From IMG/VR virus record IMGVR_UViG_3300045996_000464, positions 7,289-71,288 of that record: 64,000 bases of DNA, one strand, 5' to 3'. This document shows positions 20,420 through 35,360 of the stretch, piece after piece (the first letter of the stretch is position 1; every line of letters starts with the position of its first letter). Origin of the DNA: a virus. The notes below the pieces were generated by a model, which was not told where the DNA came from, made no database searches, and saw only the letters and a list, made by a program, of their open reading frames with translations. A program made the translations under genes and the position numbers.

Positions 20420-20448
20420 TTGACAGAGAGAACCCTGTCTGGTACACT
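20420..20448 (+). promoter_or_regulatory. sigma-70-type promoter at the start of the tRNA cluster
   Basis: TTGACA-N17-TACACT. Confidence 0.8.
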
Positions 20449-20468
20449 TTATAGACAGCAGTAAACTA

Positions 20469-20542
20469 GGGTCTTTAGCTCAGTGGAACAGAGCGGCGGT
20501 CTTCTAAACCGTAGGTCACAGGTTCGAATCCTGTAAGACTCA
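20469..20542 (+). tRNA. tRNA-Arg(TCT)
   Basis: Cloverleaf, anticodon loop CTTCTAA. Confidence 0.93.
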
Positions 20543-20593
20543 CTAGGATAGGCGGTTCGACTCCGCACCGAAAGGTTCCGGGAAAATCCGAAC

Positions 20594-20622
20594 TTGACAG
20601 CAAGATCGTCAGGTGGTAGTAT
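20594..20622 (+). promoter_or_regulatory. sigma-70-type promoter
   Basis: TTGACA-N17-TAGTAT upstream of a structured non-coding region. Confidence 0.65.
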
Positions 20623-20629
20623 GTTGATA

Positions 20630-20982
20630 GGTGCCTCCGACTCATGTGCTGGCGAGTCAACTCACCGAAAGTTTGGTGGGTAGGATGCAAAACCAAGGCC
20701 GCTTCTACAGGGTCAAGGGGGAGCAGAGAGAGCCTTTCACTCAACACGAGTGAGAACACTGTAGTAGCGCGTGGGATTGAACTACCCGCTGAGTTGCAGA
20801 AGCATGAACGAAGACTCTAGGTTCCAACCTAGGGAAACCGAAAAATGTGGAAACTCAAAGGCGGCGGGTTAGCAAGTGGCCTTTGATATATTACATGCCC
20901 CGCGCTTCTAGAGTCTTCTGACTCGACATAGTGTGATGCGATTGGTAAACGAAGTCGCCAAGGCTTCCCTGACCATCACACC
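20630..20982 (+). ncRNA. candidate large structured ncRNA (~350 nt)
   Basis: No plus-strand ORF; long-range helices GAAGACTCTAG/CTAGAGTCTTC and GTGTGATG/CATCACAC; GNRA loops; own promoter. Confidence 0.55.
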
Positions 20983-20986
20983 ATAT

Positions 20987-21059
20987 GGGGATGTAGCTCA
21001 GTTGGGAGAGCAATTGCTTTGCACGCAATAGGTCGCGGGTTCGACTCCTGTCATCTCCA
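20987..21059 (+). tRNA. tRNA-Ala(TGC)
   Basis: Cloverleaf with G3:U70. Confidence 0.95.
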
Positions 21060-21105
21060 CTTTAGCGCTAAACGTCTGGGCATAGCCGTAAAACTAACCC
21101 TTCGG

Positions 21106-21296
21106 CAGGACGTATGATCCCAGGTTGAAATTTACTGCCCTCTCAAGATAATATCTCACGACCCGTGTAAGCCGGGTGGGGTGGTCATTTGCAAGACCCT
21201 CTCCGGGTAGGAGGCCCAGCCGATAGGGCAGACATCGGCGGTCGTTACAGGCCACACTGTAACAGGGTGCGCCCTAAACAGCGTAACACGTCCTGC
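21106..21296 (+). ncRNA. candidate structured ncRNA
   Basis: GCAGGACGT/ACGTCCTGC closing helix; CTGCCCT/AGGGCAG and GTTACAG/CTGTAAC internal helices. Confidence 0.5.
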
Positions 21297-21345
21297 GCAG
21301 CCCGTTGGAGCATTGCGTTCCGCGAGGGATAGGCGGGGACACCAT

Positions 21346-21418
21346 AGGCAATTAGCTCAGTTGGGAGAGCGTCTGCTTTACACGCAGAGGGTCGGGGGTT
21401 CAAGTCCCTCATTGCCTA
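21346..21418 (+). tRNA. tRNA-Val(TAC)
   Basis: Cloverleaf, loop TTTACAC. Confidence 0.95.
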
Positions 21419-21551
21419 CTAGCGTTCGGATTCTGACGACACCGAACGTGGTGCATACACCGAAAAGTCAGCGGTGGGTAACTCCTAGAGATATGCACAA
21501 GCCGTGGCAACTGTAGCGCTCCTGATGGAGTGGCGAACCCTGCGGCTCCAT

Positions 21552-21633
21552 GCAGATATGGCGGAATAGGTATACGCGCTGGTCTTAGAAACCAGTGGGG
21601 TGACCCATGCAGGTTCGATTCCTGTTATCTGCA
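21552..21633 (+). tRNA. tRNA-Leu(TAG)
   Basis: Type II cloverleaf, loop CTTAGAA. Confidence 0.93.
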
Positions 21634-21764
21634 CTAGCTCTGGAAGGTCGAGACTTCGTAATTGCGGTCAGGCGCACAGAGCAGTAAGATCATCTCAGCA
21701 AGGTTTCTCAGGAGGGGATGGATAGCGGTTGCTGAGTGCTATCCATCCCCACAGGGGAATCCTC

Positions 21765-21838
21765 GGACGTGTAGCTAAGCGGCTCAAGGCAGGGGACTCT
21801 TAATCCCAAGATCGTAGGTTCGAATCCTACCACGTTCA
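21765..21838 (+). tRNA. tRNA-Lys(CTT)
   Basis: Cloverleaf, loop CTCTTAA. Confidence 0.92.
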
Positions 21839-21939
21839 TAGCAATGGGTACCGGGTAGTACGTGTGTGCGGCGTATCCGCATGGGCCATCGGTCAATCCG
21901 TCTAAGGTGTACAACAGGAACCCGACTTCATTGCAATTA

Positions 21940-22011
21940 GGATGCATGGCAGATTGGTTATGCAGGCGGCTCTTAACCGTCGAGATGTGGGTTCGATTCC
22001 TACTGCATCCA
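21940..22011 (+). tRNA. tRNA-Lys(CTT), second copy
   Basis: Cloverleaf, loop CTCTTAA. Confidence 0.9.
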
Positions 22012-22220
22012 CTAGTGTGGCCGGGGGCGTTCAGCCCTAAGGTAGCCGCAAGGCAAGGGAGTCTACGGACTCACTAGGTTCTAGTGACCTAGCCCTACGT
22101 CACACGCAATAGTAGCTGGTCGTGCGCCTATGACGGGCGTACATAGGGTTCGATTCCCTAGTGAGCCTGGAAGGGTCTACCGAGGGCGGCGTGGCAGAAA
22201 CCACGGATCAGTGAAGTTTA

Positions 22221-22300
22221 GTCCGTATGCTGGAATTGGTATACAGGCACGGTTGAGAGCCGTGTGCGGAAGCATCCGAGTTCGACTCTCGGTACGGACA
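22221..22300 (+). tRNA. tRNA-Leu(GAG)
   Basis: Type II cloverleaf, loop TTGAGAG. Confidence 0.92.
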
Positions 22301-22344
22301 TAGAAAGACCAAGATGCGAACGGTAATGTGTGGAGGTAATTCAC

Positions 22345-22407
22345 ATGACACTTGGTGGAATTCTAGTTGTAATTCTGATTGTTCTTGTTCTGCTCTGGCT
22401 ACTCTAA
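22345..22407 (+). CDS. 20-aa single-TM microprotein (MTLGGILVVILIVLVLLWLL)
   Basis: GGAGGT RBS; almost fully hydrophobic ORF. Confidence 0.6.
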   Translation: MTLGGILVVILIVLVLLWLL

Positions 22408-22424
22408 AGGCACAGAGCAGCCTA

Positions 22425-22498
22425 GTTCACGTAGCTCAGTCCGGTAGAGCTTTCGGTTGAAGCCCGAAGAGTCGGCGGTTCAAATCCGTCCGTGAACA
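22425..22498 (+). tRNA. tRNA-Phe(GAA)
   Basis: Cloverleaf, loop TTGAAGC. Confidence 0.92.
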
Positions 22499-22511
22499 CC
22501 TTTTGGAACCA

Positions 22512-22905
22512 CCTTCCCTGGGCAAAGCGGTAGCTCCGTGCGCCCTTATGGGTTGGTGGGTGGTATGGCGGAAAAGCGCCTAGTTGCCTTCTCGCAAGGC
22601 GGGTGGCTAGGTGTTGAACGCACGTCTGGCGAAAATCCTGGGCAACCAGGATGAGTAGTAGTCGAATGAAAGCATCATTGTTGTACCCAGGGGCTACCGC
22701 TGAGGGAGGCAATGGTGTGGGCGAGGCGCAACCTCGTACAGCGATGGCGCGGCAGCGCAGGAATGGTCGGAGAGAAACCTATGATAAAGGCAGCTTTGCC
22801 TCTCCGTGTGGGATGCCAAGACCCACTATCACATCCAAATCCTTTGATTGGATAGGACGACAGGGAGATACCACTGGGTGGTGTCGAGGCAGACAATTCT
22901 CCCAT
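22512..22905 (+). ncRNA. candidate large structured ncRNA (~400 nt)
   Basis: AGCGGTAGCTCC/GGGGCTACCGCT long-range helix; several GCAA-capped hairpins such as ATCCTGG-GCAA-CCAGGAT. Confidence 0.55.
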
Positions 22906-22909
22906 CCAT

Positions 22910-22983
22910 GCCCCATTGGATTAGTGGTTTAGATCGCTGCCCTCTCAAGGCAGAGAACACGGGTTCGAATCCCGTATGGGGTG
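22910..22983 (+). tRNA. tRNA-Glu(CTC)
   Basis: Cloverleaf, loop CTCTCAA. Confidence 0.93.
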
Positions 22984-23085
22984 CTAGCTCAATGAAGGTG
23001 GGCCGCTTTCATTCAAAACAGACTGGAATGGGCACTCACCAGAGAGTAACCGTAGGAAAATTATATGCTCCTGCGGGTTATTTGA

Positions 23086-23156
23086 TGGCGTATCGTCTAA
23101 TGGTAAGACGCGGGGCTGTTAACTCCGTTATTCAGGTTCGAATCCTGGTATGCCAG
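23086..23156 (+). tRNA. tRNA-Asn(GTT)
   Basis: Cloverleaf, U1-A72, loop CTGTTAA. Confidence 0.9.
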
Positions 23157-23266
23157 CTAAAATGAACCAGAGATGACGGGAACGACTTAGGGCGGGGGAG
23201 TTTCCCTCGTGAACAGCGAAAACTGTCGGAGAGAAAACTGGAAATCTGCGCCCTTGAAAGGCGTAG

Positions 23267-23339
23267 ACGTGTGTAGCTCAGTCAGGGAGAGCGGTCGGCT
23301 TTCAACCGATGGTCGTGGGTTCAAATCCCACCACAATGC
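23267..23339 (+). tRNA. degenerate tRNA, TTC anticodon on a Lys-like body
   Basis: D, anticodon (CTTTCAA) and T arms intact; outer acceptor stem mispaired. Confidence 0.6.
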
Positions 23340-23404
23340 AGACTTAATGGCGTGCTGCACGATCCGCAGCCGTGAAGCCTAGTCACGATACGACGGGCAA
23401 TTAA

Positions 23405-23476
23405 TCCCGGATGGCGAAGAGGAAACGCAGGCGGCTGTTAACCGTCCATTCGTAGGTTCGAATCCTACTCTGGGAG
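23405..23476 (+). tRNA. tRNA-Asn(GTT), second copy
   Basis: Cloverleaf, U1-A72. Confidence 0.92.
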
Positions 23477-23505
23477 CTAGTCTCGTAAGCAACACAGGAG
23501 ATGAG

Positions 23506-23870
23506 CATGAAGTAATGTAACAACCCTGCGTCCATAGGACACGAGGCGCGTGGCCACGAAGACCAAACCATGTTAGCCTTGAGGGAACACCTTATGTGGT
23601 TGGGGTGAATGTTACTGTCAGCCGAAGCGGGATCACGTCGCCAAGGAAGCCGGGAACGTCTTGCTAGGCAGCTAGTGCCATTGCGGTAACAGCTAGCTGT
23701 TGGGCCTAGTACAGCGAAAACTGTGCGGAGGGTCGCCCGTAAGGTAACGTTGATTATATTTGGTTTTGCTTCCCGTCGCTGCATTGCGGCTGGCGGGACA
23801 TTCATTTAGATGCTATTTATAGCTGGGCGGACAGCTAGAGCCGGGGTGATAAGCGTCGGCATCCGTCAAC
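23506..23870 (+). ncRNA. candidate structured ncRNA region
   Basis: Several helices; contains the GGGAACGTCTT...CAGCGAAAA motif; no plus-strand ORF. Confidence 0.45.
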
Positions 23871-23873
23871 CTA

Positions 23874-23961
23874 GGAGCGGTCGCATAGTTGGCCGATTGC
23901 GCGGGTTTGCTAAACCCGTATGTCTGAAAGGGCATCCAGGGTTCGAATCCCTGTCGCTCCG
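23874..23961 (+). tRNA. tRNA-Ser(GCT)
   Basis: Type II cloverleaf, G73. Confidence 0.93.
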
Positions 23962-24026
23962 TAGCTAGAAGTCGTCTCGCCGGTAAAGCCACAGGCTGTA
24001 AAGCGGAACCGTTCTCTAGCTTACTT

Positions 24027-24108
24027 GGAATGTGTCCGGGTGGTGAGGGCGCTGTCTTGAAAACAGTTGCGTCGTGAGGCGTTGCAGGTTCGAATCCTGT
24101 GCATTCCG
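24027..24108 (+). tRNA. tRNA-Ser(TGA), short atypical D-arm
   Basis: Acceptor GGAATGT/GCATTCC, loop CTTGAAA, long variable arm. Confidence 0.85.
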
Positions 24109-24202
24109 TAGAGTTAGTCCCGGTGTGTTGGCCCGTACAGCCAGAGTCCGGGCTTGACTAGGTTGATCGCCTAGGATTGCAGCATCAGAACCGCTAACTC
24201 GT

Positions 24203-24289
24203 GGTTACATCGCATAGTGGTCTAGTGCGCCCGCTTGGAAAGCGGGTTGGGAGGAAATGCCCTCGTAGGTTCGAATCCTACTGTAACCG
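24203..24289 (+). tRNA. tRNA-Ser(GGA)
   Basis: Type II cloverleaf. Confidence 0.93.
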
Positions 24290-24467
24290 TAGAGAAGATT
24301 GTAGACGATCTTGCAGTCGAAGGAATGTGTCGCCTGAGCAAGCAGCCGCATTCCAGTCTTCTCTTTAGTTTAGGTCATAGTAAGATGCGTTCGACTCGCA
24401 TTGAAAGCTTGGTGTGTCGCAGGGTCGTGCTGGCCAGCCCTCTGCGTGACTCCCTGATCTAAAGCTT

Positions 24468-24538
24468 GCGCGATACAGTCATGGCGACGAGTGGGCCTCC
24501 AAAACCTTACTGAGCGGGTTCGACTCCTGCATCGCGTG
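24468..24538 (+). tRNA. tRNA-Trp(CCA), atypical D-arm
   Basis: Acceptor GCGCGAT/ATCGCGT, G73, loop CTCCAAA; very small D-arm and irregular anticodon stem. Confidence 0.75.
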
Positions 24539-24688
24539 CTAAGTCCTTTGTTGCTTGCCGTCCGTGAGGTATCTAGAACCGTAGCGGGTAGCTCAGGGTT
24601 AGATTCCCTGATAGGGCCACAGCGCCCTAGGCTGAGGGAACCACGCCCTTAAAGCGTGGTATTCTCGGCAACACTGGACTCCGGTTTA

Positions 24689-24761
24689 GCATCGGGCGCG
24701 TCCGGTAGATGCAGCCGAGCTTATATCTCGGCAAGAGCAGGTTCGACTCCTGACCGATGTA
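24689..24761 (+). tRNA. tRNA-Ile(TAT), non-canonical fold
   Basis: Acceptor GCATCGG/CCGATGT, 5-bp D-stem, 6-bp anticodon stem around CTTATAT. Confidence 0.8.
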
Positions 24762-24879
24762 CTCTAGTGTGGCTACGTTGTGCTTGCTGGCACCATGGCA
24801 GGAAACTGAGGCTGACCGTCCCTGGCGTAGATGCGCACCACACTGGAATATTAACACCCTCTCTGACGTTGGAGTAAGT

Positions 24880-25140
24880 ATGGAAAAGACACTGTACAAG
24901 TTCTACGCAGACTGGTGCGGGCCGTGCAAGATCATGAATCCAGTGGTTGACAAACTAGTAAAGACTCATGGTCTGGTGTTGGTGTCTGTCAACATTGACG
25001 ACGAACCACATCGCGCGCACGATCACGATGTACGATCCATTCCTACGCTCGTCTTAGAGCATGAGGATGGCAGCAAGACTCGCGTGGTAGGCGTAAGGCC
25101 GTACTATGCAACCGAGCAGGCGCTAGGCTTAACCGCTTAG
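24880..25140 (+). CDS. trxA: thioredoxin
   Basis: FYADWCGPCK active site and VRSIPT; GGAG RBS. Confidence 0.9.
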   Translation: MEKTLYKFYADWCGPCKIMNPVVDKLVKTHGLVLVSVNIDDEPHRAHDHDVRSIPTLVLEHEDGSKTRVVGVRPYYATEQALGLTA

Positions 25141-25152
25141 CGTTTGCACCAT

Positions 25153-25229
25153 AGACGTGTATACCCTCGCTCTGATAAGGCGTAGAAAGGTTAGCAGGTT
25201 ACACAGTGGTTCGAATCCACTCACGTCTA
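25153..25229 (+). tRNA. rearranged tRNA-Ile(GAT) with a D-loop-like segment 3' of the anticodon arm
   Basis: Perfect acceptor AGACGTG/CACGTCT plus A73, perfect T-arm, anticodon arm CGCT-CTGATAA-GGCG; no D-arm at the normal position. Confidence 0.7.
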
Positions 25230-25412
25230 CTGGCGAAAGCCAATGTCAGGGCAATGCCTATGGACGTAGCGCTAGCCGCGACCATGGAACCGAAGGTCAG
25301 ATTGGATCGTTCTTAGATGGCCGGACTTTTCCGGTCTGCCGTTCGTGAAAACTGAAACCGAAATCCATGAGATGCTAGTAGGCGCGGGTACTGGCACCCT
25401 TTTTAGAAAGAA

Positions 25413-25569
25413 TGGCAATGCAGTAAGTGATTACAATTGGAGAAAGTGGCCGAACCCAACGGTGACCACGAGAACGTCTTGACACAAAGTGGACGAAAGG
25501 CTTAATTAGCTGAGTAGGTAGAAGCGGGTCGAGCGAAAAGCGTGCGAGTTGATCGGTGACGCATTGCCA
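25413..25569 (+). ncRNA. candidate structured ncRNA upstream of tmRNA
   Basis: TGGCAATGC/GCATTGCCA closing helix; GAGAACGTCTT...GAGCGAAAA motif. Confidence 0.5.
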
Positions 25570-25576
25570 GTTTTAT

Positions 25577-25915
25577 GGGGATGAAATGGTATCGATTGCC
25601 AAGTAAATGGCATAGTTGCGAGCAGTGGTGACCGAGGCCACTTAAATCACGGTCAAACCAATAAATGCAGAGAACACTTCTGTAGCAGACACCTTCCCGG
25701 CCGAATGGGCTGAGGATCGTCTAGCCGTCGCTGCGTAAACGGATCAACAGAAACGCAGTCCAATGGGACACCCGCGAGGCCATCCTAAATACAACGGGTC
25801 TTGCTGATTAAGGCGGCTCTTGCAGCCGTAACGGGACGCGGCACCTTAGCCAGCTACGCTCGTAGACGCTAGTTGTTTCTTGTGTAAGACGCGAGTTCGA
25901 CTCTCGCCATCTCCA
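25577..25915 (+). ncRNA. ssrA: tmRNA; tag (A)AENTSVADTFPAEWAEDRLAVAA
   Basis: GGGGATG/CATCTCCA Ala-type acceptor, stemless D-loop, 3' T-arm; ATAAAT-GCA resume site at 25667; tag ends in AA-stop. Confidence 0.95.
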
Positions 25916-26027
25916 CTTAAGTGTATCGCCCGCCCAATGCCGGTTGCCGCTGGCTACGGGGCAACGGGTACGGCGGCAACCGTATTCACAATATCGGCTG
26001 TAGGCCGAGGCGGTAGGTTATGAATCA

Positions 26028-26100
26028 AGCGGGTTACCATTCTGGTGAAAACGGGAGTCTCATAAGCTCTCCCAGACGGGTTCGATCCCCGTACCCGCTC
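26028..26100 (+). tRNA. tRNA-Met(CAT)-like, atypical D-arm
   Basis: Acceptor AGCGGGT/ACCCGCT, loop CTCATAA, good T-arm. Confidence 0.75.
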
Positions 26101-26149
26101 CCTTCGTCGCCTATCCGGTTAGGCTAATAACCCCGGTGTGGCGGCTCCT

Positions 26150-26221
26150 GGCACCTTGACCGAGTGGTTTAGGTAGTGGACTGCAAACCCACGCACGCGA
26201 GTTCGATTCTCGCAGGTGCCT
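26150..26221 (+). tRNA. tRNA-Cys(GCA)
   Basis: Cloverleaf, U73. Confidence 0.93.
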
Positions 26222-26275
26222 TGTGGTAACCCGATCAAATGACAGTCGTCATTCCTAAACTATCGGGAGGTTGTC

Positions 26276-26587
26276 ATGACCGTATACTACAGCCCTGAGC
26301 AGTGGAACCTAGAGCCGTTCGCGGAACTAGAGTTGACTGAGCCGGACTATAGCTTCGATCTGGTGGTCGTGTGGCGACACAAGGACACTGGCGAGTTGTA
26401 CTTCGCTCAAGACTCAGGATGTTCGTGCCCTTCTCCGTTCGAAGACTTCACTAGCATCGATGATCTGATCCTCTTGTCTACGGACAACGATTACGATTGC
26501 TTGATGCGTGTGACGGATCGAGCGGACAACCGCGCGAATCGTGTGAGCTTTCTACGGAAGGTTCACGCGGCGATGCAGACTGGATGA
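26276..26587 (+). CDS. hypothetical protein (DSGCSCPSPFE motif)
   Basis: GGGAGG RBS, 103 aa. Confidence 0.75.
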   Translation: MTVYYSPEQWNLEPFAELELTEPDYSFDLVVVWRHKDTGELYFAQDSGCSCPSPFEDFTSIDDLILLSTDNDYDCLMRVTDRADNRANRVSFLRKVHAAMQTG

Positions 26588-26633
26588 TGGAACGGTTGCA
26601 TGTTCGACCCATGCGCGTCCGCTGCTCGCACAA

Positions 26634-26707
26634 GCCCCTCTAGCCCAACTGGCAGAGGCAGTCGGCTTAAACCCGACACAGTAACGGTTCGAATCCGTTG
26701 AGGGGTA
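26634..26707 (+). tRNA. tRNA-Leu(TAA), short variable loop
   Basis: Cloverleaf, loop CTTAAAC; resembles actinobacterial Leu(UAA). Confidence 0.92.
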
Positions 26708-26710
26708 CTA

Positions 26711-26806
26711 GCTGTACATTGTTGGTTCGAATCCAACTCCCGGCACTCACGCCGGGATAGCGAAGTGGCAGACGCGCCCTGGCTCATAACTGGGGAGACG
26801 TGCGGT
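26711..26806 (+). tRNA. circularly permuted tRNA(CAT), Met-like
   Basis: Order is T-arm (26721-37), acceptor 3' strand TCCCGGC+A, linker CTCAC, acceptor 5' strand GCCGGGA, D-arm, anticodon arm with CTCATAA, AGAC; flanks GCTGTAC/GTGCGGT are complementary. Confidence 0.75.
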
Positions 26807-26886
26807 GTAGTCGAAGAGGGAAGGGAACGAATGTCTAAGCCAATCGGGTGGATGCTCGATAGCGACACGAAAACCTCCTGAGACGA

Positions 26887-26970
26887 GCAGGACTGGTGGA
26901 ATTGGTATACACGGCAGTCTCAAAAACTGCTGCCTTCACTGGCTTGCGGGTTCGAGTCCCGCGTCCTGTA
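26887..26970 (+). tRNA. tRNA-Leu(CAA)
   Basis: Type II cloverleaf. Confidence 0.94.
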
Positions 26971-27769: not shown

Positions 27770-27783
27770 AAACTTAGAGAAGC

Positions 27784-29068: not shown

Positions 29069-29082
29069 GTGTAAGGTACAAA

Positions 29083-29160
29083 GCCAGTTCGCCCAAGGTG
29101 GGCACGGCGGCTGTAACCCGCCCGTCTCAGACACGATAGGTTCGATTCCTATAGCTGGCA
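29083..29160 (+). tRNA. tRNA-Tyr(GTA), compact D-arm
   Basis: Acceptor GCCAGTT/AGCTGGC, loop CTGTAAC, long variable arm, 5-nt D-loop. Confidence 0.85.
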
Positions 29161-29256
29161 TAGTTGTGAAAGCCGCACAGAAGGGCAAAGGGTGCTTATG
29201 CCCGGACAGGTCTTGCTAAGGAAAATGACACCCCTCTTTAGCGTCACAACTAACTC

Positions 29257-29297
29257 GCTAGTATAGTAGTCTGGCTGACTACACCCGGCTGTAACCC
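29257..29297 (+). pseudogene. orphan 5' half of a tRNA-Tyr(GTA)
   Basis: GCTAGTA, D-arm and CCCGG-CTGTAAC-CC, then breaks off just before the HNH ORF. Confidence 0.7.
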
Positions 29298-29303
29298 TTT
29301 GTT

Positions 29304-29669
29304 TTGGGTTACATCGCGCAGGTAATTGGCATGAGAGACAGAAATGCTTATGCGCGAGACGTTACGTACCGTAAACCGGGACGCAAAGAGTACATAATAG
29401 CGTCTAACAAAAAGCGGCGAGCAGCAACCGTACAAAGGTTGCGCGATTACAAGTTAGAACATGGTTGCGCTGAGTGCGGCTTTAATGACTGCGCTAGTGC
29501 CCTAGACTTCCATCACCGTAATGGTGACGAGAAGTTGTTTAGCCTCGGTTCAGCAGCAGCCCAGGATTATGGATGGGATAGGCTCGCAGCCGAGATAAAG
29601 AAATGCGATATTCTTTGCGCAAATCATCATCGCATGAAGAATTGCAAATGTCACGCTAGCATGGTGTAA
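29304..29669 (+). CDS. HNH endonuclease (homing-type)
   Basis: CAECG...LDFHH...EIKKCDILCANHHR motifs. Confidence 0.85.
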   Translation: MGYIAQVIGMRDRNAYARDVTYRKPGRKEYIIASNKKRRAATVQRLRDYKLEHGCAECGFNDCASALDFHHRNGDEKLFSLGSAAAQDYGWDRLAAEIKKCDILCANHHRMKNCKCHASMV

Positions 29670-29725
29670 AGGTTGCACACTGGTCTGTAAAACCACGAGA
29701 CTAGGTTCGATTCCTAGTGCTAGCA
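29655..29725 (+). tRNA. tRNA-Tyr(GTA), short variable loop
   Basis: Acceptor GCTAGCA/TGCTAGC, loop CTGTAAA; overlaps the HNH stop codon. Confidence 0.88.
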
Positions 29726-29792
29726 CTCGATGAGATGATGACAAAGCTATCGGTCGTCACGCCTATGACCTAGGTCGAAGAGGATAGCACGA

Positions 29793-29868
29793 TCCAAGGT
29801 TACTCTGTTGGCACGGGTGGCGCGGCTTTGAACCGTTGCAATCGTGGGTTCGATTCCTACCCTTGGAA
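29793..29868 (+). tRNA. tRNA-Gln(TTG)
   Basis: U1-A72, loop CTTTGAA, irregular anticodon stem. Confidence 0.82.
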
Positions 29869-30031
29869 CTGAGCAGGAGAACTACATGGCGATTGAGGGC
29901 CACGAACCCAAGAGCATCGTCTAACGGATGAACCTGCTGCGGGTGTACGGGTCGTGCCGTTACCCTAAGTTGCACGAAGAGGCGTTTGACGGTAGCCACA
30001 ACTTCGCTAACCCAGAGGGAAACCGTCGCTT

Positions 30032-30105
30032 GATGCTGTCGTCTAGAGGCTTAAGGCACCGCCCTGTCACGGCGGATATCGCGGGTTCGAATCCCGTCAG
30101 CATCG
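30032..30105 (+). tRNA. tRNA-Asp(GTC)
   Basis: Cloverleaf, G73. Confidence 0.93.
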
Positions 30106-30209
30106 TATGGGTCACAGTAGGTGATTCAGCCGGAATCGGCAGCTAGTCTTGTACCTCCCGTTGGGGTCGTGCCCAACAATAGGGTGCTGTACATGTGCCC
30201 CGGCAGCAA

Positions 30210-30282
30210 CGCCCCTTAGTTCATTGGTCTAGAACGCCCGCCTGTCCAGCGGAAGAGACGAGTTCGATTCTCGTAGGGGTGG
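30210..30282 (+). tRNA. tRNA-Asp(GTC), second copy
   Basis: Cloverleaf, loop CTGTCCA. Confidence 0.88.
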
Positions 30283-30495
30283 CTGAATTCACTACTAATG
30301 AATCGTGGTCTGTGCCAACTGTCATAGACGCCGAACATACACAAGAACACCTTGCCATCGCGCGGGGTGATAGGAAGGTAACAAGCCTTGTGAATCCCAA
30401 TTCCTGGCAAGGCTGGATTGGGAACCTTCCGAACAAGGGTTACGTCCAGCGCCCCATCCGTAGAGGGTGGTAAGCGGGGGTAGCGTGCCCACCAT

Positions 30496-30569
30496 ATCAG
30501 AGTCGTCTAATGGTCAAGGACACCAGACTTTCAATCTGGGCAATGCGGGTTCGACTCCCGTCTCTGATA
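30496..30569 (+). tRNA. tRNA-Glu(TTC)
   Basis: Cloverleaf, loop CTTTCAA. Confidence 0.93.
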
Positions 30570-30638
30570 CTAACTCGATGGATATCACATCGGGGGCGCA
30601 TGGGGTGCAATTCCCATTAGAAACATGCGCTTGCTTTA

Positions 30639-30712
30639 GCATCAGTAGCTCAGTGGTAGAGCATCCGCGACATGGTAGCGGAAGGTCATGGGTTCGATCC
30701 CCATCTGGCGCT
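30639..30712 (+). tRNA. tRNA-like gene with a 9-nt anticodon loop (GACATGGTA)
   Basis: Normal D and T arms; TCCGC/GCGGA stem; anticodon not assignable. Confidence 0.7.
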
Positions 30713-30830
30713 CTGGTGATACGTAACGGTGGCCTACGCTTCGGCGGACAATAGTGCGCCTAAGTCGTATCACCAACATTCAGGTCGGAGCTTACCCGAT
30801 ACACAGGAAATCCTATTGTTAGGAGCTACT

Positions 30831-30992
30831 ATGTATCACCGATCTGATGCCAGTCTCCGACGCATCGCAAAGAAGCGCGCGAAGAGACATGGTACTACGG
30901 CAAAGGACTTCAAACGGAAGGGCTTGCGGAGGCGCTGGCTCGTTCATCAGCTAGCCGGACATAACGGCTACAAGAACACCGATTTGCCGTAA
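30831..30992 (+). CDS. small basic protein (53 aa)
   Basis: AGGAG RBS before ATG; Arg/Lys-rich. Confidence 0.55.
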   Translation: MYHRSDASLRRIAKKRAKRHGTTAKDFKRKGLRRRWLVHQLAGHNGYKNTDLP

Positions 30993-31033
30993 ACGACAAG
31001 GTGGACTCCTAAACGTGCAGGGGAGTCCGTCAC

Positions 31034-31105
31034 GCCAGCTTAAGCCTAATGGTAGGGCACATCCCTTGTAAGGATGGGGTACGGGTTCGATTCCTGTAGT
31101 TGGCT
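31034..31105 (+). tRNA. tRNA-Thr(TGT)
   Basis: Cloverleaf, loop CTTGTAA. Confidence 0.92.
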
Positions 31106-31107
31106 CT

Positions 31108-31184
31108 GTGGATGAAGCTAAAGTGGCCGAAGCTCTGGGTTGTGATCCCAGCGAAAGCGGGTTCAAGTCCCGTCATCCACCCCA
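31108..31184 (+). tRNA. tRNA-His(GTG)
   Basis: Cloverleaf, C73, encoded CCA; T rather than G at position -1. Confidence 0.92.
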
Positions 31185-31185
31185 C

Positions 31186-31260
31186 GGTGAACGGGTAGCC
31201 TTTGGCGGCTACGGCGGGTTGTGATCCCGTTGGCAGCGAGTTCGATTCTCGTCGTTTACC
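31186..31260 (+). tRNA. tRNA-His(GTG), extended D-stem
   Basis: G-1:C73; GTAGCC/GGCTAC D-stem. Confidence 0.85.
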
Positions 31261-31265
31261 CTTAA

Positions 31266-31379
31266 GCGGACGTAGCTCAGTTGATGAGAGCATCGTGGCG
31301 TTAACCCACTCGCGCTAGAGCGCTCTAGGTGCGGTGGCTGTCACGAAGGTCGGAGGTTTGATTCCTCCCGTTCGCTCCA
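31266..31379 (+). ncRNA. tRNA-Gly-like body with a ~44-nt structured insert replacing the anticodon loop
   Basis: Acceptor GCGGACG/CGTTCGC+TCCA, D and T arms; TCGTG/CACGA stem extended into a long hairpin. Confidence 0.7.
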
Positions 31380-31445
31380 TGTTCCGGTGTGGTTCCACGG
31401 TTCTCACATCGGCCGCTGACAGACCCGTGGTTCCTGTCAGCATTC

Positions 31446-31518
31446 GCCTGACTGGTGCTAATGGATAGCATACGTCGTTGGTATCGACGGGGACAGAGTT
31501 CGATTCTCTGGTTAGGCT
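31446..31518 (+). tRNA. tRNA-Thr(GGT)
   Basis: Cloverleaf, loop TTGGTAT. Confidence 0.92.
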
Positions 31519-31612
31519 TGTGACCCACTACATGGAGGCGCACACATGCGCAACTCACTTGCCCAAACCATGTAGGTAGCAATAGTGCTACCTCATCGTT
31601 TGGGAGGTAAAG

Positions 31613-31798
31613 TTGGCCAGAAAGTCTCAGGCCGAAATTGATCTTGGTTCTCTTGGCAAGGGCAAGAAGAAGGACAAGAAGAACAAGAATCGCAAGTACG
31701 GGCGTAACCTCAAGAAGTGCGCCAACTACCGCTTGCGCGTCGGTAAGCCCCTCGGAAGAGGCGTATCCGGCAACAAGCGCGGCAAGAGCCACGTTTAA
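31613..31798 (+). CDS. small highly basic protein (61 aa)
   Basis: GGGAGGT RBS before TTG; Lys/Arg-rich. Confidence 0.65.
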   Translation: MARKSQAEIDLGSLGKGKKKDKKNKNRKYGRNLKKCANYRLRVGKPLGRGVSGNKRGKSHV

Positions 31799-31802
31799 AT
31801 AT

Positions 31803-31877
31803 GGGAGTAGTCAAGGTTCAAATCCTTGCCCTGGCCCCACAAGGGTCGGGAGGTAGTGTTAGCGGGCGCACGCTCCC
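31803..31877 (+). ncRNA. YrlA-like / permuted tRNA-like RNA
   Basis: GGGAG/CTCCC closing stem encloses T-arm, then acceptor-like hairpin, then D-arm. Confidence 0.7.
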
Positions 31878-31925
31878 CTACATCATCGGGTATGGATTCC
31901 GCCCGAGGCCCAAAAGGGATCACCC

Positions 31926-31998
31926 GCCAATCAAGCTTAAGTGGCTAAGCGCCTGTTTCGTAATCAGGAGGTTCTCGGTTCGAATCCGGGGATTGGCT
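31926..31998 (+). tRNA. tRNA-Thr(CGT)
   Basis: Cloverleaf, loop TTCGTAA. Confidence 0.88.
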
Positions 31999-32039
31999 TA
32001 CACTCCTAAATCAAAACCCACCATTGTGTACGGAGACGC

Positions 32040-32291
32040 ATGAAGAAACTACTACTCGTTCCGGTCATGGCCCTCGCGCTGTTCGTTGGCGCAGCGGCAG
32101 CACCGGCTAAGACCCCGGTGTTCGGCACCGAGGATTCATGTGCGGCAAGCTTCTCAATCGAGAATGCTCAAGCATGTGGCTCTAACCCGACACCCTATAT
32201 CGTTCACTGTAGCTATAACTCATCCACTGGCCACTACTTCGTCGGCTGGTCGGACGGACGCTGGTACTACAACCCGAACGGCTGCTGGTAG
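32040..32291 (+). CDS. small secreted Cys-containing protein
   Basis: GGAG RBS; MKK-hydrophobic-AxA signal peptide; 4 Cys. Confidence 0.7.
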   Translation: MKKLLLVPVMALALFVGAAAAPAKTPVFGTEDSCAASFSIENAQACGSNPTPYIVHCSYNSSTGHYFVGWSDGRWYYNPNGCW

Positions 32292-32477
32292 AAACACGGT
32301 GGGCCACCAGCCGTTCAAATGGTGGCTATAAGGTTGGTTTCAATGAAAAAGAACACTGGAATCGCAGCTTACAGGCTGATCCTGCGGAAACGGCCATGGT
32401 ACCGTAGATGGTACGCCCTGACGCTCTATTTTTACTACCGTACTAAGATCAGGCTCACATCTCACCTGTAATGGGTG

Positions 32478-32552
32478 ATGAGTACGATCCTAATCCTAGT
32501 AGTTCTGGCCGTAATCCTGGTATGGGTTCTCTGGCCAGACATTCGGAGGTAA
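32478..32552 (+). CDS. 24-aa single-TM microprotein
   Basis: Hand-translated MSTILILVVLAVILVWVLWPDIRR. Confidence 0.45.
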   Translation: MSTILILVVLAVILVWVLWPDIRR

Positions 32553-32555
32553 GAA

Positions 32556-32663
32556 ATGTCAAAGGGTGACAAGGTAGAAGTACAGGCAGCGCAGAAGGGT
32601 AGCCCCAAGAAGGGTTCTGGCTGGCGCAACGTAGGCAAGAAGCTACGCCGAAAGAAGAAGTAA
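32556..32663 (+). CDS. 35-aa basic microprotein
   Basis: GGAGGT RBS; MSKGDKV...KKLRRKKK; TAATG overlap with the next gene. Confidence 0.6.
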   Translation: MSKGDKVEVQAAQKGSPKKGSGWRNVGKKLRRKKK

Positions 32664-32914
32664 TGAGCGAGCTAGAAGAGACAGCCAAGCGGCTAGCTAA
32701 GGCTAGCGAAACAATCTATTCCAAGGCGGATGAAATCAAGGCTGTCGCGGATCAGTTGCGTTCGGACGTAGATGTTCTTACGGAACGACTCGACGCGGTT
32801 GAAAGTGATGCAACTCACGTTGCAGAGAATCTAACCGCAACTAGTGAGAAGGTTGAGGGGCAGCAAGTTAAGCAGGATGATCGTCTAGACACTCTAGAGA
32901 ACGGCAACACATAG
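32663..32914 (+). CDS. coiled-coil hypothetical protein
   Basis: 83 aa with heptad-like pattern. Confidence 0.65.
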   Translation: MSELEETAKRLAKASETIYSKADEIKAVADQLRSDVDVLTERLDAVESDATHVAENLTATSEKVEGQQVKQDDRLDTLENGNT

Positions 32915-32985
32915 GCTATTAACTCAGTTGGGAGAGTACCTCGTTGACATCGAGGAAGTCACTGGTTCAAGTCCAGTATAGCCTA
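32913..32985 (+). tRNA. tRNA-Val(GAC)
   Basis: Cloverleaf, loop TTGACAT. Confidence 0.94.
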
Positions 32986-32990
32986 CTCAT

Positions 32991-33062
32991 GGGGAATTAG
33001 TGCTAACGGGAACACATCGGTTTTGCATACCGAAATTAAGGGTTCGACTCCCTTATTCTCCA
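32991..33062 (+). tRNA. tRNA-Ala(TGC), second copy
   Basis: Cloverleaf, G3:U70. Confidence 0.92.
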
Positions 33063-33082
33063 CTTTGTGCTATACTTAGAGT

Positions 33083-33226
33083 ATGACCGAGAAGATGAAA
33101 GTCAAAGGTTCCAGCGAGGTTGTCCAGGTCACCGGCAAGAGCGGCGATTATTACCGCGTCTACGTCAAGGGTGTGTCTGGTTACTATCACGACTGGTACC
33201 ACAAAGATCAGTTGACTCCCGCATAA
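33083..33226 (+). CDS. 47-aa SH3-like microprotein (probably leaderless)
   Basis: Hand-translated MTEKMKVKG...WYHKDQLTPA; ATG 6 nt after TGC-TATACT. Confidence 0.55.
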   Translation: MTEKMKVKGSSEVVQVTGKSGDYYRVYVKGVSGYYHDWYHKDQLTPA

Positions 33227-33295
33227 GTAGCTCAGATTGGCCAGAGCAGGTCGTTGCCAACGATCAGGTCGTGGGTTCGAATCCCATCTTATGCT
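33221..33295 (+). tRNA. tRNA-Gly(GCC)
   Basis: Cloverleaf, U73. Confidence 0.93.
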
Positions 33296-33345
33296 TAGCT
33301 CGTTCGTGGGTGAGGGTACCCAATATGACCATGTTCGGGCTTTCA

Positions 33346-33420
33346 AGTCTCATTAGTGTTAGCGGTTCAGCACTACAGTCTTCCAAACTGTAAGCATCGG
33401 TTCGAATCCGATATGAGACT
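33346..33420 (+). tRNA. tRNA-Gly(TCC)
   Basis: Cloverleaf, loop CTTCCAA. Confidence 0.9.
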
Positions 33421-33561
33421 CTTCCACGGACAGTCCTCGCAGGGTATCCTAGGGCAGTTAAACACACTGCGACCATTCGGCCCGAGACGGAGCTAGGTTG
33501 ACGGTATCAGAATGCAGAACATCTAGGGTCGTGTTTACTGATGAGGCTTAACCGTGGATAT

Positions 33562-33634
33562 GGTTGCGTAGCTCAGAGGATAGAGTGCCTCCCTGCGAAG
33601 GAGGAAGCCGCTGGTTCGATTCCAGCCGTGACCA
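33562..33634 (+). tRNA. tRNA-Arg(GCG)
   Basis: Cloverleaf, loop CTGCGAA. Confidence 0.92.
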
Positions 33635-33766
33635 CTAGACCGTATGTTCCAGATTGCCGCCGTTGACGAACGGGTCTGCCCCTGGACTTGAGAATCCAAC
33701 TCTTGCATCTAACGTGGATGTAAGCAAGGGTTCCAGACGGTCTTTCATGTACAACCCGGAGAAAGC

Positions 33767-33955
33767 ATGTACAAGGACGCAAACAAGTTGACGGTGCGCG
33801 AAGGATACGAATGGGCGCTAGCTGCCGCAACTGCTGCCGAGCATGGCAGTGGCTCTAGCAACACCCACGTTCCTGCTGCCTATCAGGCTGCATATGACGC
33901 TGGGTACAACTATGGCACCGCTGTGTTGAAGCCCATGAAGCGCAACACTCACTAA
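33767..33955 (+). CDS. hypothetical protein
   Basis: GGAG RBS, 62 aa. Confidence 0.55.
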   Translation: MYKDANKLTVREGYEWALAAATAAEHGSGSSNTHVPAAYQAAYDAGYNYGTAVLKPMKRNTH

Positions 33956-33957
33956 TT

Positions 33958-34257
33958 TGTAGCACAGACTGCGGCTGTCAGATTCAATCAACTGGCAGAG
34001 GAAAGTCCGGGCACCTGCTTGGCGGGAATTCAACCGCGCAAGCAAACGTTCACACGAGCCTAGGAGATGACCTTAACTTTTCGAAGTTAAGATGAATCGC
34101 TTAACTAGTAAGGTGGCGGGGTGCGACCCCAAGACGTGCGGCTGAGATGCTGACACAGGTAGGGGGCAGGTAGACGTGAGTCTCCCGCGATAAATAGCGA
34201 GTTAGATCGTAGTCCTTCCCCGCAAGGGGTTGACAGAACCCGGCTTATCGTGCTACA
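33958..34257 (+). ncRNA. rnpB: RNase P RNA (compact, divergent)
   Basis: P4 signatures GAGGAAAGTCCGGGC and ACAGAACCCGGCTTAT; P1 TGTAGCAC/GTGCTACA; P2 GACTGCGG/TCGTAGTC; P3 and P19 hairpins. Confidence 0.9.
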
Positions 34258-34266
34258 CTGTATTGC

Positions 34267-34461
34267 ATGAAGTTACAGCGTGAAACTGCGCCGACGCCCG
34301 ATGGCGAAATCCCGGAGTGGGAGCAGCTTTACTGCTGGTCATGTTCCGCCAACAAGCATCACCGTCTGGTCACGATGATGGATTCAGATCATGGCACAGA
34401 GGCTCTACATCAGTGCATGAATTGCAACACTGTTTCACAAGCGTTTTACCCTGCTACGTAG
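34267..34461 (+). CDS. zinc-ribbon hypothetical protein
   Basis: Two CxxC pairs; follows TTGACA-N18-TACACT. Confidence 0.6.
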   Translation: MKLQRETAPTPDGEIPEWEQLYCWSCSANKHHRLVTMMDSDHGTEALHQCMNCNTVSQAFYPAT

Positions 34462-34525
34462 CCAAGTGGTCTAAGGCAGCGGCCTCATAAGCCGCCACTC
34501 GTCAGTTCGAATCTGACCGTAGCGA
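34452..34525 (+). tRNA. tRNA-Met/Ile2(CAT)
   Basis: Cloverleaf, loop CTCATAA. Confidence 0.9.
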
Positions 34526-34526
34526 T

Positions 34527-34712
34527 ATGGCTAAAATAAACCAAGCAGCAGAGAAGCGGCTCAAGAACGAAGAGTACGCCAAGAAGTTCGAAAAGAAGAA
34601 GGAACCACAGGTTCGTGGCAAGAAGGAAAAGCCGAAGCCGAAGTTCGCTAATTGGTGTCGGGCTAAGGGGCATCCAGCATCTTGTCAGGTAGACGCATGT
34701 CCTCAGCCGTAA
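34527..34712 (+). CDS. small basic Cys/His protein
   Basis: 61-aa ORF directly after a tRNA. Confidence 0.5.
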   Translation: MAKINQAAEKRLKNEEYAKKFEKKKEPQVRGKKEKPKPKFANWCRAKGHPASCQVDACPQP

Positions 34713-34799
34713 AACATAATCATCTCACTAGGGATATCAAGCGCCCTGGTGTTTGCCCCAAGTGCGACGAGTATCACAAACGTCCAGGCGGGCAGCTAA

Positions 34800-34871
34800 G
34801 TCCTGGTAGCTCAGAGGAAGAGCTTTCGCCTCCTAAGCGAATGGTCGCTGGTTCGAATCCAGTTCAGGACG
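34800..34871 (+). tRNA. tRNA-Arg(CCT)
   Basis: Cloverleaf, loop CTCCTAA. Confidence 0.93.
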
Positions 34872-34984
34872 TTATGAAATGGTATTGTAGGCGTTGCGGG
34901 TACGTCATGAATGGTATAGCTCAAACGTGGCGCGGTGATGGCCCGTGGTGTCCCACACCAAAATGTAAGGGTATGAAACTAACG

Positions 34985-35058
34985 CGCGGGATGGAGCAGT
35001 CAGGTAGCTCGTCAGCCTCATAAGCTGAAGGTCGTAGGTTCAATTCCTACTCCCGCTT
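34985..35058 (+). tRNA. initiator-like tRNA-fMet(CAT)
   Basis: CGCGGGATGGAGCAG body, C1 x U72 mismatch, TTCAA T-loop. Confidence 0.9.
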
Positions 35059-35103
35059 CTAACCTCCTAAGTGTGGATTGTGACCACAACCGAGGGAGGT
35101 AGC

Positions 35104-35319
35104 ATGGCAGCAGTAAAGAAGGTCGTAGTTGGTACGGATGACCTTGTAGGTTGCAAGGTTATCAGCGTGGACTACAACGAGATGACTCTAGAGAAGGATG
35201 GCAGGCAGTTCTATGTCGAGCTAGAGGAAGAGGCGTACTGGAACACCATGTGTGACGGTTGTTGCGGCTGTGGTAGCGCACCAACTTACATGGTAGCTCG
35301 CGCCGATGCAGTTGAGTGA
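35104..35319 (+). CDS. hypothetical protein
   Basis: GGGAGGT RBS; CDGCCGC motif. Confidence 0.65.
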   Translation: MAAVKKVVVGTDDLVGCKVISVDYNEMTLEKDGRQFYVELEEEAYWNTMCDGCCGCGSAPTYMVARADAVE

Positions 35320-35335
35320 AAGGTACACAAGCACC

Positions 35336-35360
35336 AGCCCTCCTTCGGGAGGGCTTTTGT
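35336..35360 (+). terminator. intrinsic terminator closing the RNA cluster
   Basis: AGCCCTCC-TTCG-GGAGGGCT followed by Ts. Confidence 0.8.

Follow-up and report, generated by a model that had tools for sequence, protein, structure and literature searches.

A putative type A RNase P RNA with a divergent specificity domain in the tRNA array of a large actinophage-type contig

Ribonuclease P (RNase P) is viewed as a housekeeping ribozyme found universally in cells. Here we describe 64,000 nucleotides of viral DNA (the window, meaning the whole stretch analyzed; bases 7289–71288 of the linear IMG/VR viral contig IMGVR_UViG_3300045996_000464, 71,288 bp) in which a block of about 15 kb (20420–35360) is, as judged from sequence and predicted structure, a transfer RNA (tRNA) array that includes a viral RNase P RNA of type A whose specificity domain (S-domain) is divergent. 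The block probably serves as a translation-support module of the phage, furnished with its own RNase P RNA. Moreover, this arrangement, an RNase P RNA gene within a tRNA array, is found repeatedly among large viral contigs.

RNase P RNA in the array and in other viral contigs

A permissive scan against Rfam identified the following gene within the block:

33956–34263, + strand: divergent type A RNase P RNA, 308 nt (RF00010, RNaseP_bact_a)

The match covers the full RF00010 model (positions 1–367) at 64.4 bits (E 6.7e-18; E 7e-18 to 7e-21 across scans), in agreement with the original prediction, made from the letters of the window without database searches, that the block encodes an RNase P RNA. 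Conserved regions I (CR-I, at 33998) and V (CR-V, at 34233) are both identical to the consensus. They are spaced 220 nt apart, which is ordinary among cellular type A RNAs (203–223 nt in many of them), and a description of the RNA as shortened overall was therefore dropped. The predicted S-domain itself is short and not alignable to the model: the segment between the two P5 strands, where the specificity domain is sited, measures 104 nt and was not aligned to P7–P14, and in the RF00010 alignment unaligned inserts (35+34+35 nt) stand in for the S-domain positions and P7 appears as a deletion. An extra GNRA-capped hairpin, read from the sequence, lies between P2 and P4.

A homolog was present in a metagenome locus (L151) that was found by using the ribonucleotide reductase (RNR) gene as an anchor (79% protein and 72% DNA identity) and is the sole syntenic relative found. 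The first 5.5 kb of L151 are syntenic with window positions 31034–36700, and the two share the gene order Thr, His, His, ..., Thr, Thr, Val, Ala, Gly, Gly, Arg, Met, RNase P RNA, Arg, Met, RNR. The RNase P-like RNA of L151 (3091–3403; RF00010, 33.4 bits, E 4e-7) thus occupies the same array position. Helices were compared on covariance-model alignments, because MAFFT misaligned the 3' half owing to a 79-nt insert in L151. In each RNA, every pair is formed in the catalytic-domain helices P1, P2, P3, P4, P5, and P15, including 8 of 8 pairs in the P4 pseudoknot with its bulged U, whose register follows the E. coli P4 model. Compensatory double changes between the two phages affect six of seven pairs in P2, one of eight in P4 (G-C to A-U), and one of four in P15; P1 and P3 differ in both length and sequence and pair perfectly in each phage. 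The single-stranded elements are conserved (CR-I, CR-V, the bulged U, the GGTGCGA motif of J5/15, and the GGT of L15), and the L15 GGU motif (AGGTAGGG) is present in both RNAs. According to work in E. coli, L15 GGU pairs with the 3' CCA of the substrate.

We consider the RNase P RNA to be real despite its sub-threshold score, and the pattern points to selection on a working catalytic domain. The original prediction had further credited the block with its own maturation ribozyme; this stands at the level of sequence and structure, given the intact core and the compensatory changes in L151. A blastn search of the window RNase P RNA against 50,697 phage records returned no match, and exact pattern scans of viral contigs found no loci with the CR-I/CR-V spacing of the window and none with the CR-I variant of L151.

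The exact CR-I 15-mer occurs at 76 places in IMG/VR (75 records), and the contexts of these loci are bimodal, with at least five co-oriented tRNAs within 2 kb at 17 loci (9–28 tRNAs each) and none at 53. We scanned 40 whole records with RF00010, comprising 29 of the 75 CR-I records, chosen for long contigs, and 11 RNR relatives. A match was found in 25 of the 40 (22 above the cut-off), with RNA lengths of 207–379 nt, and the matching records include ones that are rated complete or have terminal repeats (168–463 kb). Twenty of the 25 loci were examined for their tRNA neighborhood (L121, L124, L125, L128, and L139 were left out), and 14 of them sit among 6–17 tRNAs. Among 80 cellular rnpB loci of similar spacing, used as a control, 76 had no more than one tRNA within 2 kb, and only two reached five, which was also the maximum. 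No gene for RnpA was present in any of the five RNase-P-bearing viral records checked, four of which are rated complete, and a CCA-adding-type enzyme is encoded in one of these five.

Several of the RNase P matches that lie in dense arrays (8–13 tRNAs) are short: L140 (G023:82201–82407; 207 nt, 118 bits), L142 (G028:101792–102012; 221 nt, 72 bits), and L141 (G021:74342–74584; 243 nt, 85 bits). From their sequences, these RNAs look like catalytic-domain-only forms. When a canonical viral RNase P RNA (L122) was compared with phage records by blastn, only 11 records matched, which is not proof that cultured phages lack the gene; the matches were uncultured “Bacteriophage sp.” contigs, two Acinetobacter phage MD-2021a records (host not known), and one mislabelled Salmonella assembly. 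A full-text literature search, with subscription journals and bioRxiv supplements outside its reach, found no published description of a phage-encoded RNase P RNA. A term search of the huge-phage paper (PMC7162821) showed that tmRNAs are mentioned there and RNase P is not, and the Bcheck paper (PMC2996960) makes no mention of phages, plasmids, or viruses.

tRNA genes, tRNA-like elements, and small genes of the block

ARAGORN placed 45 tRNAs and one transfer-messenger RNA (tmRNA) in the interval 20469–35059, every one of them on the + strand, and called no others in the remainder of the 64 kb. These are listed here together with the tRNA-like elements of the block:

20469–35059, + strand: 45 tRNA genes (ARAGORN), with 37 distinct anticodons for 19 amino acids and no standard tRNA-Trp
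25577–25918, + strand: one-piece tmRNA with tag peptide AENTSVADTFPAEWAEDRLAVAA (ARAGORN; RF00023)
23270–23341, + strand: tRNA-like element whose acceptor stem is weak and whose anticodon arm is of the Glu(TTC) type (RF00005, 52.6 bits, model 4–67 only)
24468–24539, + strand: degenerate tRNA-like element, tRNA-Trp(CCA) (relaxed ARAGORN -ps90 only; T-arm motif at 24517)
25153–25229, + strand: tRNA-like element upstream of the tmRNA, with acceptor stem, T arm, and a degenerate core (RF00005, 30.7 bits)
26028–26102, + strand: odd tRNA-Met-like gene with an enlarged anticodon loop (ARAGORN; RF00005, 24.8 bits, below the gathering score)
31266–31379, + strand: 114-nt tRNA-like RNA in which the acceptor, D, and T arms are normal and CCA is encoded (RF00005, 47.6 bits, 31266–31376)

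The Rfam gathering score for tRNAs (RF00005) was reached by 37 of the 45 genes; the remaining eight (starting at 22221, 24026, 24689, 26028, 29083, 29793, 31187, and 31446) all have seven of seven acceptor pairs, as do 43 of the 45 genes overall, the other two having six of seven. CCA is encoded by a single tRNA gene (tRNA-His, 31108–31184) and is missing from the other 44, so that the original count of about 45 near-canonical tRNAs, most without encoded CCA, is reproduced. By the ARAGORN boundaries, the base following the tRNA 3' end is T in 41 of the 45 genes, and TAG follows in 15. Both trailers exceed the spacer background (binomial p of 2e-23 for T and 2e-15 for TAG), and the T/TAG trailer is likely a 3'-processing signal. 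The trailer may be written TAG(C), and CTAG is denser in the block (5.6 per kb) than in the remainder of the window (3.0 per kb). One further tRNA-His has the anticodon ATG, with A at the wobble position (window 30639–30713); tRNA-His genes of this kind are also found in the syntenic relative L151 (815–888) and in an unrelated viral array (L127:2878–2956). To our knowledge, A34 in bacterial tRNAs is normally limited to tRNA-Arg(ACG).

The tmRNA, likewise anticipated in the original prediction, matches RF00023 over model positions 1–374 at 108.3 bits (gathering score 47), and ARAGORN reads a tag of 23 residues. Relaxed ARAGORN also called a permuted tmRNA (25137–25829), and there was a weak match to the Rfam family tmRNA_permuted (26.6 bits, E 0.045). 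Both calls are probably artefacts because the tRNA-like element at 25153 adjoins the complete one-piece tmRNA.

At least nine tRNA-like oddities were counted by relaxed ARAGORN, Rfam, and T-arm motif, which is in keeping with the at least six aberrant genes first proposed: the five elements listed and orphan T-arm motifs at 20554, 22147, 26724, and 31815. With the motif at 24517, five T-arm motifs fall outside the default gene calls. The orphan hairpins at 20554 and 26724 lie 6–10 nt downstream of tRNA-Arg (20469–20543) and tRNA-Leu (26634–26708), respectively, and resemble a duplicated tRNA 3' part. “Rearranged” tRNAs had also been claimed, and here the result differs, as degenerate and extended tRNA-like elements were seen and a permuted tRNA was not. 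In the 31266–31379 element, the anticodon arm is a long imperfect helix of about 25 bp, and relaxed ARAGORN reads it as a tRNA with a 35-nt insert. Apart from the tRNA-His at 31108, it is the only element of the block with encoded CCA, and no counterpart was detected in L151. It cannot decode and may hence be a decoy or a processing substrate. The 26028–26102 gene is 84% identical to L151:3627–3700; its position differs, being after the tmRNA in the window and after the RNase P RNA in L151. The 24468–24539 element is the sole tRNA-Trp candidate in the block and has no Rfam match at E up to 5. The Rfam span of the element at 23270 is 23270–23335.

Signals that could delimit a transcript were found at both ends of the block:

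20283–20311, 20420–20448, and 20594–20622, + strand: three sigma-70-like promoters (consensus matches only)
35336–35355, + strand: intrinsic terminator at the block end, with an 8-bp stem (six GC) followed by a T run

The promoter at 20420 reads TTGACA-17-TACACT, and TTGACA-N17-TAnnnT occurs eight times in the window versus 0.97 expected by chance. Within the block there is no + strand terminator of comparable strength, and the next promoter-like site (35371) comes just after the terminator. A polycistronic block is plausible because the promoters cluster at its start, one strong terminator stands at its end, and none comparable occurs inside. The proposed co-oriented block of about 15 kb, running from a promoter at 20420 to a terminator at 35336, was thus recovered in both signals and in the + orientation of all RNA genes. 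A further promoter-like match, at 34230 within the CR-V of the RNase P RNA, probably arises by chance.

Between the RNA genes, open reading frames (ORFs) were assessed by codon-usage log-likelihood per codon, for which the in-frame gene mean is 0.27 and the out-of-frame mean −0.40. Twelve spacer ORFs score at least 0.1 per codon, and 13 are gene-like or conserved. The following stand out:

24880–25140, + strand: thioredoxin gene (PF00085, E 1.9e-17; codon log-likelihood 0.16 per codon)
26276–26587, + strand: DUF7574 protein gene (PF24459, E 5e-23; phrog_6881, E 6e-19)
27590–27769, + strand: 59-aa very basic ORF (47.5% over 40 aa in L078/L144/L157, which are one contig, and in L158)
31613–31798, + strand: 61-aa very basic protein with the motif KYGRNLKKCA.YR (74% over 31 aa in L151; codon log-likelihood 0.32)
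34527–34712, + strand: 61-aa basic, Lys-rich protein with the motif NWCR..GHPA.C (55% over 56 aa, L151:3436–3585)
35071–35319, + strand: Cys-rich, acidic protein of 82 aa, encoded by the final gene ahead of the terminator (39% over 57 aa in L151; codon log-likelihood 0.29)

Small basic proteins had been noticed at the outset, and three of them (31613–31798, 34527–34712, and 27590–27769) are conserved elsewhere. Four other homologs of the 31613–31798 protein occur on metagenomic contigs (63%–82% identity), as do three of the 34527–34712 protein (73%–79%), in which NWCR..HPA.C is invariant. The latter ORF lies just 3' of the RNase P RNA in both phages, with a 33-nt gap in L151 and one tRNA in between in the window, and its product could be a nucleic-acid-binding partner. 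The 27590–27769 ORF is also kept in the arrays of the more distant relatives G001 and L158, on the strand that carries their tRNAs. Searches against Atlas and PHROGs provided no function for the small proteins. Two very short, strongly hydrophobic ORFs were also observed between tRNAs. One (22346–22407) encodes about 20 residues and has GGAGG upstream and a poor codon score (−0.67); the other (32475–32552; 25 residues, neutral codon score of −0.02) is directly upstream of a 35-aa basic ORF (32556–32663) that has a GGAGG site.

Outside the block, the contig encodes structural proteins (tail lysin, baseplate J, large tail proteins, terminase, and portal), replication proteins (RNR, a DnaC-like loader, DnaB, primase, RNase H, Pol III alpha, and RecA/UvsX), a Cas4-like exonuclease, and RuvC. 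The portal is 39%–42% identical to portals of Rhodococcus phage Finch, Gordonia phages, and cluster C mycobacteriophages; a portal search matched 227 records, every one below 60% identity, and 209 of the 227 are Mycobacterium phages. On this gene content, the contig (CheckV completeness 48%) is a fragment of a large actinophage-type myovirus, distantly related to Mycobacterium cluster C, Gordonia, and Rhodococcus phages. The phage comes from soil and is probably lytic. Near-identical pieces of the contig are present in contigs from four soil DNA runs. Those over the block are short, with a depth of about 2–4×, and almost identical to the window, with a single recurrent difference at 32492, and are for these reasons uninformative on conservation; joints and high-depth bins in the mapping of these runs stem from tRNAs of other organisms. 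The cumulative guanine-cytosine skew has its minimum at about 18–20 kb, adjoining the array start, and rises steadily thereafter, with genes mostly on the + strand on both sides. This minimum (window about 16000–20000) may mark a replication origin or terminus.

Proposed processing and alternative explanations

We propose that the block would be transcribed in one direction from the cluster of sigma-70-like promoters to the single intrinsic terminator, as suggested by the consensus signals. The long precursors would carry the 45 tRNAs, the tmRNA, several tRNA-like RNAs, and the interleaved small protein genes. RNase P would make the 5' cuts, with both host and phage RNA taking part, and an RNase Z-type endonuclease would make the 3' cuts, after which the host enzyme would add CCA. 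RNase Z prefers CCA-less precursors with U after the discriminator, as described in work on B. subtilis. Cutting of this type would fit the array because CCA is missing and U is near-universal after the 3' end. Since a phage gene for RnpA was not found, the RNase P RNA of the phage most likely assembles with host RnpA, and its likely role would be to raise or secure 5'-processing capacity for a flood of phage precursors during the shut-down of host RNA synthesis, when each transcript would present about 50 substrates in the course of takeover. Excision of the tRNAs would also free the small-gene messages and the folded spacers as separate pieces, of which the remaining folded spacer would most likely consist of decayed tRNA copies and of structures that serve processing or stability rather than of dedicated noncoding RNA (ncRNA) genes.

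Several observations weigh against this reading of the block as a translation-support module with its own RNase P RNA. The RNA falls short of the curated Rfam cut-off, its 64.4 bits being below the gathering score of 100, and the covariation comes from two sequences only. The S-domain segment (104 nt in the window and 83 nt in L151) forms two stem-loops in each phage, and a common fold was not established, by RNAalifold or otherwise. Recognition of the tRNA elbow may be impaired or different, because the S-domain is unalignable to the model and this common fold with L151 was not established. Moreover, the nearest other relatives, G001 (RNR 66%, 95 kb, 60% complete) and locus L158 (RNR 68%), are without an RNase P RNA, as are all four cultured relatives scanned (Finch, Stormageddon, Pupper, and Cali), and the gene is therefore dispensable in this lineage. 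Counts of looser transcription signals in the block are not above those in shuffled sequence (13 promoter-like sites versus 10.7, and 17 terminator-like sites versus 13.8). No RNA sequencing run was found to contain the sequence, and transcription, processing, and activity are all inferred. Lastly, 53% of the block is neither RNA gene nor convincing ORF, and the 34 spacers fold better (mean z-score of −1.88) than 34 length-matched coding controls from the same phage (−0.31; Mann-Whitney p = 4e-5). The notion that the spacers are mostly junk and processing structure is the weakest part of our proposal.

These last two findings favor an unlikely alternative, in which the spacers themselves would be the products, released by tRNA processing as discrete, functional, structured ncRNAs, and the array would chiefly be an ncRNA cassette. 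RNA genes and tRNA-like elements make up 4,392 nt (29%) of the block and the 13 ORFs 2,688 nt (18%), which leaves 7,861 nt (53%) in neither category. The z-scores, computed with 25 shuffles each and with the 914-nt spacer left out, confirm that the spacers are structured, as had been proposed: 13 of the 34 have z < −2, compared with 2 of the 34 controls, and individual spacers reach −5. The array also holds tRNA-like elements that cannot decode, the one at 26028 being conserved in L151. As a separate observation, the best-folding short spacer (21635–21764) has a z-score of −5.2, and none of 200 shuffles was as stable.

Against an array made chiefly of ncRNA genes, no spacer matches an Rfam family at E up to 5, apart from tRNA-clan matches, and no spacer-specific repeat family was found, as all 20 families shown derive from tRNA bodies. 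DNA is alignable between the window and L151 only in tRNA bodies, the RNR gene, and two segments inside conserved ORFs, so that spacer DNA aligns solely where it is protein-coding; in the other loci compared, nothing aligns except tRNAs. Syntenic spacers differ two- to threefold in length between the window and L151 (407 versus 607, 914 versus 374, and 113 versus 350 nt), and the strongest folder, at 21635–21764, is mostly a single perfect hairpin of 14 bp and not a complex fold. Wherever conservation is visible, it is at the protein level, in small ORFs. Nonetheless, the silence of blastn on the spacers is weak evidence, because blastn also missed the RNase P homolog of L151 and structure-only conservation would be invisible to it. 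The large ORF-poor spacers are mainly in the 5' two-thirds of the array, for which no relative was found: searches of viral contigs with the portal and DUF7574 gave nothing useful, thioredoxin gave two distant matches (32%–36%), and the tmRNA 3' end pattern gave 11 loci, none of them related beyond the 29–35 nt tRNA-like end and one 20-nt match in L362. The original prediction of an ncRNA cassette therefore holds in part, in that the spacers fold better than coding sequence and 53% of the block is unexplained, and is undercut by the missing Rfam matches, the protein-coding nature of the alignable parts, and the differing lengths. Likewise, the proposed comparison of arrays from related phages for shuffling as units favors such shuffling for the moved 26028 element alone; spacer content otherwise turns over.

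A more elaborate scheme, which we regard as unlikely, would make the block a self-contained viral RNA maturation system. The S-domain would be tuned to the phage's own precursor, the 61-aa basic Cys/His protein (34527–34712) would act as an RnpA substitute, and the punctuated 15-kb transcript would release tRNAs, tmRNA, messages, stable spacer RNAs, and tRNA mimics for takeover or counter-defence.

It is improbable that the RNase P-like RNA is instead a decoy or regulator that soaks up host RnpA or competes with the host RNase P RNA and so redirects or shuts down host tRNA maturation. With no rnpA found in the phage, the RNA must meet the host protein; its specificity domain is unconventional, and the absence of the gene from related phages would fit an accessory weapon. 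A sponge, however, would not need the catalytic-core features, all of which are kept (P4 with its bulged U and a compensated pair, CR-I, CR-V, and L15 GGU), and in many unrelated large phages the gene sits within an array of its presumed substrates.

Two further explanations are very improbable. The low Rfam score, the divergent specificity domain, and the relatives without the gene could suggest a decaying, functionless relic of a host rnpB picked up by chance, but a relic of this kind is hard to reconcile with the pairing of every core helix, the eight base pairs changed on both sides, the intact conserved single-stranded motifs, and an unchanged array position in two phages that share only 72% DNA identity in RNR. 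The block could also be an integrated element, either a prophage or a host tRNA-array island as in mycobacterial chromosomes and plasmids; tRNA array units are indeed described on mycobacterial chromosomes, plasmids, and phages (PMC5966550, PMC12803027), two mycobacterial genomes have extra RNase P RNA copies (PMC9569102), and the contig covers only about half a genome, but IMG/VR classes the record as linear and not as a provirus, virion and replication genes of the phage lie to either side of the block, and host-like genes were not seen next to it. A search for tyrosine and serine recombinases (PF00589 and PF00239) had no match across the 71-kb record, a result that is not final as the record is only 48% complete. 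The initial description of the system as possibly integrated is hence unsupported, with neither an integrase nor a resolvase found in the 71 kb.

Relation to known systems and significance

The window RNA resembles bacterial type A RNase P RNA (RF00010; E. coli M1/rnpB) in matching the whole model and in its CR-I and CR-V, P1–P5, P15, and L15 GGU. It differs in being phage-encoded, inside a tRNA array and without rnpA nearby, and in its score (64 versus 100 bits), its 104 nt unaligned to P7–P14, and its extra GNRA hairpin. Type T RNase P RNAs of the Thermoproteaceae are minimal and without a specificity domain. They likewise keep the catalytic domain and have a reduced substrate-reading half, and the RNAs of other viral array loci measure 207–243 nt; however, type T RNAs are archaeal, whereas the window RNA is of bacterial type A and still has 104 nt at the S-domain site. 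The tRNA cluster of phage T4 offers another comparison, as its precursors also yield the stable RNAs C and D (species 1 and 2) through tRNA-processing enzymes. T4 uses host RNase P, whereas the window phage would bring its own ribozyme RNA, and the stable RNAs C and D are known in T4, whereas the window spacers are known from sequence alone.

The nearest precedent for the window RNase P RNA is the extra RNase P RNA homologs of Mycobacterium austroafricanum and M. sp. YC-RL4, for which horizontal transfer was suspected (Behra et al. 2022, PMC9569102). These homologs are reported to have conserved catalytic residues and an altered specificity domain, their function is not known, and they adjoin an endonuclease gene in the chromosomes; the authors also traced an extra tmRNA of M. 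austroafricanum to a Mycobacterium phage (PMC9569102). Compared by description only, the mycobacterial RNAs are like the window RNA in being an additional copy with catalytic residues kept and an altered S-domain, and unlike it in that they are not described there as phage genes or array members. In the literature on mycobacteriophages and Mycobacterium, tRNA arrays are proposed to make phages independent of host tRNAs or to act against defence systems (PMC5966550, PMC12803027). Cluster C mycobacteriophages (Bxz1/Cali type) resemble the window phage in being large actinophage-type myoviruses with dozens of co-oriented tRNAs and a tmRNA. The window array differs in having an RNase P RNA, which none of the four cultured relatives scanned (Finch, Stormageddon, Pupper, and Cali) has. 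In mitochondria, the excision of tRNAs from polycistronic transcripts matures the intervening RNAs (tRNA punctuation; PMC3790967), which provides an analogy of mechanism and not a homology for the processing proposed in the window.

A phage genome with 7.9 kb of well-folding, noncoding-looking spacer is in itself unusual. If the RNAs described here are active, large phages would carry a ribozyme in their translation toolkit, and the presence of the gene would identify tRNA arrays as units equipped with processing capacity of their own. These RNAs would also be natural experiments on trimming or rebuilding the substrate-reading half of RNase P, and the finding bears on phage escape from host shut-off and from defences that target tRNAs.

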